NCBI GenBank assembly: GCA_919902985.1
Contig: CAKKSC010000021.1
Coordinates: 29,676 to 93,675 of the forward strand
DNA length: 64,000 nt
Origin: Desulfuromonadales bacterium
GTDB taxonomy: Bacteria; Desulfobacterota; JAENJC01
Reading direction: 5' to 3'
The notes beneath the pieces were generated by a model. That model was not told the origin of the DNA and did not search any database. It worked only from the letters and a program-made list of their open reading frames with translations. The first letter of the stretch is position 1. Every line of letters begins with the position of its first letter. Positions 22,192 to 22,230 of this stretch are shown in pieces. A program made the translations under genes and the position numbers.

Positions 22192-22230
22192 ACAGACAGA
22201 CAGACAGACAGACAGACAGACAGACAGACA
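22192..22230. repeat. Tetranucleotide microsatellite (ACAG)n, about 9.5 units
   Basis: acagacagacag... runs uninterrupted. It lies 105 nt upstream of the probable start (22335) of the HAMP-PAS sensor gene and inside the longer upstream ORF extension (translating to RQTDRQTDRQTD). Confidence 0.95.

Follow-up and report, generated by a model that had tools for sequence, protein, structure and literature searches.

The sensor locus and its variable tract

The window analysed here is a 64,000-nt stretch of contig CAKKSC010000021.1 (positions 29,676 to 93,675, forward strand) from a Desulfuromonadales bacterium, and the element in question is a tetranucleotide tract at 22192-22230 on the forward strand, in the 387-nt intergenic region separating divergent kinase and sensor genes. 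The tract reads (ACAG)9+ACA, i.e. (ACAG)9.75. Tandem Repeats Finder assigns 22192..22230 a period of 4, 9.8 copies, 100% matches and 0 indels. An earlier note on this DNA had described the tract as uninterrupted, which holds, and as 38 nt long, whereas 39 nt are counted. As a perfect tract, (ACAG)9.75 has the form of a slippage-prone contingency repeat. The longest period-4 tract obtained by shuffling the window was 16 nt (200 shuffles), whereas the real window contains two tracts of at least 36 nt. The second, (ACTC)12.25 at 9335-9383 on the forward strand, is also perfect, and no further long tetranucleotide tract occurs in these 64 kb. Both adjoin signalling or chemotaxis genes on the upstream side.

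The sensor gene (22325..23987, forward strand) encodes a protein of 550 aa with a transmembrane helix, a Cache-like domain, a HAMP domain and two consecutive PAS domains. A Shine-Dalgarno (SD) sequence, GGAGG at 22325-22329, lies 5 nt upstream of ATG 22335, which is part of an ATGA, and the distance of 105 nt from the tract end to this ribosome-binding-site-supported start agrees with the earlier note. The genes that follow on the same strand (24006..29881) encode an XylR_N/V4R/PAS protein, a DUF559 protein, an HNOB/V4R protein, a PAS histidine kinase, a response regulator-GGDEF protein and two single-domain response regulators. Judged by strand and spacing, the sensor and these downstream genes appear to form one operon. 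A second possible start precedes the tract, namely ATG 22176 with GGAGA at 22164-22168 at a spacing of 7 nt (feature 22164..22178, forward strand). The open reading frame (ORF) from ATG 22176 is in the same frame as the sensor ORF in the window allele, and the tract is then translated as HRQTDRQTDRQTD, just as had been described before.

The locus was retrieved from independent metagenome assemblies by exact-protein look-up, and most of these came from the Hainich groundwater well H52. Alleles were counted in seven assemblies of one groundwater population, window included. Eight ACAG units were found in 3/7 (L001 from H52, 0.2 µm, replicate 3; L002; L039) and nine in 4/7 (the window; L040 from H52, 0.1 µm, replicate 3; L041 from H52, 0.1 µm, replicate 2; L042), with no other lengths among the seven; L002 and L039 are possibly non-independent, as their contig sizes are nearly equal. 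Both alleles are present in the single well H52, in different filter fractions. Comparison of L001 with the window revealed one 4-nt gap and 0 mismatches over 21,657 columns. The 4-nt gap at the tract is likewise the sole difference in L039 and, apart from a divergent contig end, in L002, and L040 is identical to the window, so that each of these four comparisons yields either the 4-nt indel alone or no difference. Since the flanks are essentially invariant while the units vary between 8 and 9, one-unit slippage is the fastest-changing character of the region. The view of the tract as a hypermutable, contingency-type repeat is thus supported: the earlier note, which had likened it to the repeats of phase-variable genes, named length variants in related genomes as a check, and such variants do exist, with 8 units in three assemblies and 9 in four.

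Two side observations concern these assemblies. L041 differs from the window by only two single-nucleotide polymorphisms (SNPs) in 3445 nt, both within 22177-22187, in the sigma-54 motif beside the tract; one turns TGGCAC into TGGCAT and the other changes one spacer base. The coverage of this contig is ~3.4x, so errors or repeat-adjacent mutation are possible. In addition, the short-k contigs of Logan (L003, L004, L032-L034, L044-L050 and L053) break in or just after both tracts and in the terminator described below. Such breakage leaves repeat-bearing loci under-represented or truncated, and surveys of repeat-bearing leaders are biased by it.

Promoter-like flanks of the two tracts

A sigma-54-type -24/-12 motif, TGGCAC-CTACC-TTGC (TGGCACCTACCTTGC), is located at 22177-22191 on the forward strand. 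It is a perfect consensus match and a predicted promoter; the consensus has been given as TGGCAC-N5-TTGC (PMC3333780) and as TGGCACG-N4-TTGCW (PMC2245857). The motif directly abuts the ACAG tract, with 22191 as its last base and 22192 as the first base of the tract, and the "ATG" of 22176 consists of an A followed by the TG of the -24 element TGGCAC. The exact pattern TGGCAC-N5-TTGC occurs a single time in the 64 kb. Two further sites with up to 1 mismatch were found in the window, and one of them ends at 9334, with the ACTC tract running from 9335. This sigma-54-like site (TGGCACGCATTTTGA, 9320-9334, forward strand) has one mismatch in the -12 element, and the ACTC tract starts at the identical offset from it as the ACAG tract does from its own motif. 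The flank common to both tracts is therefore A-TGGCAC-N5-TTG-N, followed by the tract. Given a frequency of ~2.5e-5 per position for sites with up to 1 mismatch, the presence of sigma-54-like motifs directly abutting the only two long tracts, at equal offset, is on these statistics not chance. Between the two loci, 9/10 of the consensus positions agree but only 1/5 of the N5 spacer bases, and this pattern of conserved and free positions would fit a sigma-54 site rather than codons. The two 5' flanks are ~60% identical overall, and their local alignment is not significant alone, as 296/4927 random windows scored as high. The claim of a shared flank thus rests on the in-register features.

Further features are shared in register. 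SD + ATG is found exactly at -16 from the tract at both tracts, against a background frequency of 0.0022. A sigma-70-like promoter candidate, TTTGCA, 17 nt, TGc-TAAGCT, is located at 22121..22149 on the forward strand; it matches the consensus at 7/12 positions, which is under the threshold of the consensus scan. A sigma-70-like element, TTGACA, 17 nt, TGg-TAAGTT, also precedes the ACTC tract. The pattern CCGTGnTAAGnTTT is confined to the two tract flanks in the window, but the pattern itself was derived from those sites. The ACTC locus is flanked by a CHP04442 gene and a CheR gene, and the latter has an apparent TATAAT of its own and a 5' hairpin (9577-9605).

Farther upstream of the ACAG tract, a direct repeat, two copies of GAAAAATGA(A/G)CT at 22054-22077, overlaps an inverted repeat, CTGAAAAATGAG / CTCCTGTTTCAG (CTGAAA...TTTCAG) at 22064-22097, both on the forward strand. 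They are situated 80-125 nt upstream of the -24 element, which is within the usual range for activator sites of sigma-54 promoters (about 80-150 bp), and between the kinase promoter-like site (22053-22025, 140 nt upstream of the ACAG tract) and the sensor-side promoters. The repeats at 22054-22097 are likely a regulator site, a candidate for an activator (enhancer-binding protein) that would be common to the divergent kinase promoter, and no enrichment of the motif was found elsewhere in the window.

These positions bear on the second possibility raised in the earlier note, that the tract sits between the divergent promoters of kinase and sensor and could change spacing, be it that of the promoters or of the elements within them. 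The tract does lie within the intergenic region of the two divergent genes. However, the kinase promoter-like site is well upstream of it and both sensor-side candidates (22121-22149 and 22177-22191) end before it, placing the tract downstream of the sensor-side promoters and outside the -35/-10 intervals and the inter-promoter gap. A unit change thus alters no -35/-10, -24/-12 or activator-promoter distance. Downstream of 22230 there is hardly space for a promoter, with the terminator at 22264-22319 and the ATG at 22335, and the probability that we assign to a spacing effect is next to negligible.

The leader, its homologues and the start of the sensor

Downstream of the ACAG tract, the leader contains three elements on the forward strand. 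A TAG stop codon at 22238..22240 lies in the third frame leaving the tract and is reached with 7 or 10 units. It is followed by an anti-repeat, CAAGTCTGTT at 22244..22253, whose GUCUGUU is the complement of GACAGAC in the repeat; the pairing amounts to 5-7 bp (-11.2 kcal/mol, z = -1.8). An intrinsic-terminator-like hairpin then occupies 22264..22319, with stem arms at 22270-22289 and 22296-22313 and a T-run to 22319. It has a predicted free energy of -30.2 kcal/mol (z = -5.4) and is followed by TTTTTGTTTTTT. The G+C-rich stem-loop and U-run of an intrinsic terminator are both present at 22270-22319, and a simple terminator scan missed the hairpin because the stem is composite and the inner loop 6 nt long. 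From the T-run to the sensor ATG there are 14 nt, with the SD in between. As this leaves no space for a promoter between the T-run end (22319) and ATG 22335, sensor transcription must cross the terminator.

Several other readings of the leader were tried. A repeat-number-dependent RNA switch was rejected at equilibrium, as the terminator stem forms with P = 0.98 at all repeat numbers n = 4-15 in equilibrium folding. No competing antiterminator structure was found, the minimum free energy folds giving separate hairpins. Rfam returned 0 matches at gathering score in the window, and E > 1 noise only in 21900-22400. ANTAR-type and riboswitch-type readings were dropped, since there are no matching loops, no aptamer and no Rfam match. 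The search for trans targets carrying (CUGU)n in the window yielded weak matches only, none of them at start codons.

The only full-length relatives of the sensor, P0002 and P0124, begin with MSIRQK and MTIRQK, respectively, which align to MSVRTK at ATG 22335. The contig of P0002 (L034) begins in the terminator loop; its loop, 3' arm and T-run are identical over 33/33 nt up to the SD region, whereas the coding DNA just past the leader shows ~60-65% identity. The locus of P0124 (L053), whose sensor domain is ~46-52% identical to that of the window, starts inside its repeat, so that the first 29 nt are a CAGA tract, (CAGA)7. It carries an identical CAAGTCTGTT exactly 14 nt past the last GAC, as in the window, although the 14 nt themselves have diverged. 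Past the anti-repeat there is a ~75-nt insertion that folds as its own hairpin, and then come the shared terminator and the ATGA start. The terminator loop, 3' arm and T-run are identical over 34 nt, and changes in the 5' arm mostly preserve pairing. The order of tract, anti-repeat and terminator is preserved at a diverged homologous sensor locus. The reading frames of L053 have features of their own. A TAA is found at the same offset as the window's TAG, +9..+11 past the last GAC, and a TAA interrupts the sensor frame between the tract and the sensor ATG. The third frame out of the repeat runs to a TGA that overlaps the start codon (ATG) of a 37-codon ORF. This ORF extends across the terminator and stops in turn at the ATGA of the sensor, which makes an ATGA-to-ATGA relay.

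More distant homologues of the sensor domain (P0125, P0126 and P0128) are inside operons without any leader. P0007 and P0008, with PAS segments 70% and 67% identical, were discarded as they come from an organism of 55-58% G+C and have no repeats. A genome-contig scan with the sensor gave remote HAMP/PAS relatives only (Bradyrhizobium and others) and no orthologous locus, a metagenome-contig scan with the shared promoter-to-ATG pattern gave one chance match inside a coding region resembling a nonribosomal peptide synthetase (NRPS) gene, and viral contigs gave no matches to the terminator, to the motif followed by the tract or to the tract combined with the anti-repeat. As to the proteins, P0002 and P0124 are ~90% identical over the N-terminal sensor domain and HAMP. 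The three sensors (window, P0002 and P0124) have the N-terminal sensor domain, HAMP and the C-terminal tail in common, with PAS modules that differ or are re-ordered; PAS1 of the window is closest to PAS2 of P0002, which looks like PAS cassette shuffling.

The homologues and the natural alleles bear directly on the start of the sensor. In the earlier note the sensor was envisaged as possibly translated from ATG 22176 through the tract, giving an RQTD N-terminal extension, such that a unit change would be an ON/OFF frameshift as at lgtC-type GACA tracts; lgtC and lic genes of Haemophilus are switched in this way. The ORF from ATG 22176 is indeed open, in frame and provided with an SD in the window allele, and the in-frame length is that of 4/7 assemblies. 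However, the homologues start at an MS(V/I)R or MTIR position equivalent to 22335, and the sensor frame of L053 is closed by its TAA. In the 8-unit alleles (3/7) the ORF from ATG 22176 is out of frame and ends after 52 codons at a TGA overlapping the sensor ATG (ATGA), while the sensor gene remains intact with its own SD; with such a strong SD at ATG 22335 an out-of-frame allele would not be OFF. In addition, the strong terminator hairpin with its U-run separates the tract from the sensor and would have to be coding, and it is conserved at the nucleotide and not at the protein level. ATG 22176 itself sits within the perfect -24 element. In all retrieved assemblies the called gene begins at the counterpart of 22335 or downstream of it, or else 24 nt before it at a TTG, and the ORF from ATG 22176 was called by no gene caller. 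The homologue N-termini, the sensor's own GGAGG, the out-of-frame 8-unit alleles, the L053 TAA and the intervening terminator together locate the sensor start at ATG 22335 and not at ATG 22176, making a frameshift switch of the sensor highly improbable.

The same ORF could act in another way, with the tract setting the frame of a translated upstream ORF that governs attenuation or coupling. The leader would then arise from the sigma-70 promoter at 22121-22149 and be translated from SD 22164 and ATG 22176. With 8 units the ribosome would traverse the terminator and stop at the TGA overlapping the sensor ATG, and with 9 units it would continue in frame into the sensor to give a fusion. With 7 or 10 units it would stop at TAG 22238, 30 nt before the terminator stem; the terminator would form and the operon would be OFF. 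This would be a pyrBI-like contest of ribosome versus terminator turned phase-variable. The exact -16 position of SD + ATG and the sigma-70-like -35 / 17 nt / TGn-TAAGYT element at both loci are consistent with it, as are the 52-codon ORF of the 8-unit allele with its ATGA end at the sensor start, the restriction of the seven assemblies to the read-through frames (8 and 9 units), the stop codon at the +9..+11 offset in both the window and L053, and the terminator-crossing relay of L053, although this last arrangement is a post hoc observation with a rough p of about 0.02. Ribosomes near a terminator are known to repress it, and termination efficiency climbs with the distance of the stop codon (PMC4824070). 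However, termination is also reported to be efficient less than 100 bp into a coding region (PMC4824070), and here the terminator starts ~95 nt past the ATG. That ATG falls in a perfect sigma-54 motif, the conserved and free positions of which are not codon-like, the SD + ATG common to both loci may be merely inherited given the ~60% identity of the flanks, the sigma-70 match is weak, and the ORF escaped every gene caller. An SD-preceded short ORF running into or through the terminator, the hallmark of pyrBI-type attenuation, is present in 2/3 frames only. We consider frame-dependent attenuation a serious alternative, though a rather unlikely one.

A further alternative is that the tract is a neutral microsatellite with no phenotype, either a mutational by-product beside a sigma-54 site, where the closed complex locally distorts the fork junction at -12, or the result of descent from a duplicated promoter region. 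Both tracts begin at the same base relative to the motif and have different units (ACAG and ACTC), for which a local mutational mechanism is an easier explanation than a common function of the RNA. Folding predicts no structure that depends on repeat number, the ACTC locus has none of the downstream elements, only two adjacent lengths were observed, and the only two SNPs of L041 in 3.4 kb are directly beside the tract. However, neutral microsatellites normally decay through interruption, whereas a perfect tract of the same unit is kept, with the anti-repeat at the same offset, across the divergence to L053, where the sensor domain is ~46-52% identical; this argues against a transient neutral microsatellite. 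The location of the window's two longest repeats, both preceding signalling or chemotaxis genes, also speaks against neutrality. We judge neutrality to be unlikely, somewhat more so than frame-dependent attenuation.

Other parts of the window yielded observations of their own. Two GAF/HD-GYP genes at 14991-15638 and 18274-18921 have a 649-nt segment in common with 95% identity, and in L031 a cluster of 15 mismatches at 15328-15506 matches the other copy, which suggests gene conversion or mixing of paralogues in the assembly. L031 also differs from the window by single bases in homopolymers at 5201 and 5283 (T4 versus T3, A5 versus A4). Both positions are intergenic and just upstream of the first CheR gene, with 5283 right before its ATG. 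A G9 homopolymer is found at 424-432 of L031, inside a PatA_N/response-regulator gene of the chemotaxis cluster and ~2.2 kb before the window begins; it is another potential slippage site. The CheR gene at 9625-10576 is given a range of 952 nt for a 302-aa product in ENA, and the Logan calls include a 29-aa ORF overlapping its 3' end; an (ATGGTGA)2 repeat is present at 10480-10494. Taken together, these features may reflect a frameshift site or an annotation quirk. Toxin-antitoxin modules are present among the signalling genes at 10601-11274 and 13009-13480 (TumE with a partner and HicA with a partner).

Proposed role and relation to known systems

Based on the motif, the tract, the leader and its homologues, we tentatively favour the explanation that the ACAG tract is a contingency-type repeat located at the 5' end of a leader or small RNA driven by sigma-54. 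Sigma-54 RNA polymerase starts ~10-13 nt past the GC of the -12 element, which would put the transcription start at ~22201-22204, inside the ACAG tract. ATG 22176 would thus be off the sigma-54 transcript, and no reading frame would be involved. The predicted product is an RNA of ~115 nt in which a single-stranded (ACAG)n arm at the 5' end is followed by the anti-repeat hairpin and then the terminator. This RNA would either end at the terminator, as a small RNA or an attenuated leader, or read into the sensor operon including the response regulator-GGDEF gene. A slipped-strand change would add or remove 4 nt in the 5' arm, resulting in a graded, heritable and reversible change of the leader, which may act through accessibility of the 5' end, processing, binding of a factor or target, or read-through, and not through an ON/OFF frameshift. 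The tract is therefore more likely to tune transcription of the signalling operon than to switch the sensor by frameshift. We rate this sigma-54-driven leader above the translated upstream ORF, and the two are not strictly exclusive.

A number of observations weigh against a sigma-54-driven leader. The motif shows no overall enrichment in the window (3 found, 3.2 expected), the -12 element of the ACTC locus is TTGA and not TTGC, and the 64-kb window contains no rpoN or enhancer-binding protein gene; sigma-54 is presumably present in this genome, as would be expected for Deltaproteobacteria. The start site is placed from the consensus only. The SD + ATG and the sigma-70-like promoter upstream of both tracts fit a translated upstream ORF. 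The terminator stem has the same probability whatever the repeat number, and no concrete length-sensing step emerged from the folding. The ACTC locus has neither anti-repeat nor terminator, and no ACTC length variation was found in the two informative assemblies, both with 12 units; one error-prone assembly was ambiguous, and the contigs of Logan (k = 31) are interrupted within the repeat. Finally, the 5' half of the leader is absent from L034 and L053, as these contigs start in or after the tract.

Intragenic tetranucleotide contingency loci are known from Haemophilus and Neisseria, namely lgtC with GACA, lic1-3 with CAAT and mod with AGTC/AGCC. The present tract is like them in that GACA is a rotation of ACAG, the tract is perfect with ~8-10 units, natural one-unit gain or loss occurs, and an ATG lies shortly upstream. 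However, the tract of those genes is inside a functional ORF, whereas here the true start is downstream of both tract and terminator. In its working the ACAG tract appears to resemble most the repeat loci of 5' untranslated regions (5'-UTRs), such as hmw1A and the tlpB G-repeat. In hmw1A/hmw2A of H. influenzae, the (ATCTTTC)n repeat is also downstream of the promoter, in the 5'-UTR, and pairs with a downstream complement; the repeat number gives a graded, post-transcriptional change of expression with no frameshift, and the hairpin is processed by RNase III (PMC12721329). There, one arm of a long hairpin consists of 10 repeats, and expression drops as the tract lengthens (PMC12721329). In contrast, the anti-repeat here pairs over ~7 nt and, with 5-7 bp, no long hairpin has many repeats as one arm, although the anti-repeat is still conserved; the unit is a tetranucleotide, a sigma-54-type motif precedes and a terminator follows. 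In Helicobacter pylori the leader of tlpB, a chemoreceptor gene, likewise carries a variable repeat before a sensory gene. This G-repeat is a homopolymer targeted in trans by the small RNA RepG, the control is gradual, and the downstream gene is co-regulated (PMC8295292). Unlike in tlpB, the variable repeat here would sit in the candidate small RNA or leader itself.

Small RNAs that depend on sigma-54 are well established as a class, e.g. qrr/Qrr (PMC10162802). The sensor leader is similar to these in its -24/-12 motif, short predicted transcript and strong intrinsic terminator, and also, as in small RNAs, in the conservation of the 5' part and the terminator around a variable middle, where L053 has its extra hairpin. 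Unlike in Qrr, the terminator is 14 nt from a start codon, so the RNA is maybe a leader rather than a stand-alone small RNA. To our knowledge, no sigma-54-dependent small RNA has a hypermutable repeat at its 5' end. With pyrBI-type attenuation the locus shares an SD-bearing leader ORF running through a terminator just before a structural gene, but the signal in pyrBI is UTP-dependent polymerase pausing, whereas here it would be the frame set by the tract. Literature searches retrieved no phase-variable attenuator, no repeat-bearing leader peptide with a terminator, nothing combining sigma-54, a repeat tract and phase variation, and no precedent for the layout of motif, repeat, anti-repeat and terminator.

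Nearly all known cases of phase variation through repeats come from host-associated pathogens and affect surface structures and restriction systems. A link of phase variation to c-di-GMP exists in Clostridioides difficile, through invertible promoters of phosphodiesterase genes (reviewed in PMC11868660). The present locus would be similar in having a stochastic heritable switch, here putative, upstream of c-di-GMP and signalling genes. However, the C. difficile case involves site-specific inversion in a host-associated pathogen, whereas a free-living bacterium of groundwater and the slippage of a repeat are concerned here. For the same Hainich wells, both metagenomes and metatranscriptomes are available (PMC12960796).

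A broader reading is that this poorly sampled groundwater deltaproteobacterial lineage possesses a distinct class of contingency element, with tetranucleotide tracts where transcription from sigma-54 promoters begins (two in 64 kb) and a sensor-locus RNA, small RNA or leader, of slippage-variable 5' (ACAG)n arm valency, which would stochastically diversify c-di-GMP and chemotaxis signalling in a free-living population not associated with a host. We put this forward as a speculative possibility, well behind the leader proposed for the ACAG tract itself. What has been found is a tract varying within one aquifer population, in front of a signal-transduction operon with a diguanylate cyclase, in an uncultured free-living bacterium. 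If functional, it would show that regulatory repeats can also occupy the initially transcribed region of -24/-12 promoters, a position new for them, and it would extend contingency-locus bet-hedging to sensory and lifestyle decisions in oligotrophic groundwater.

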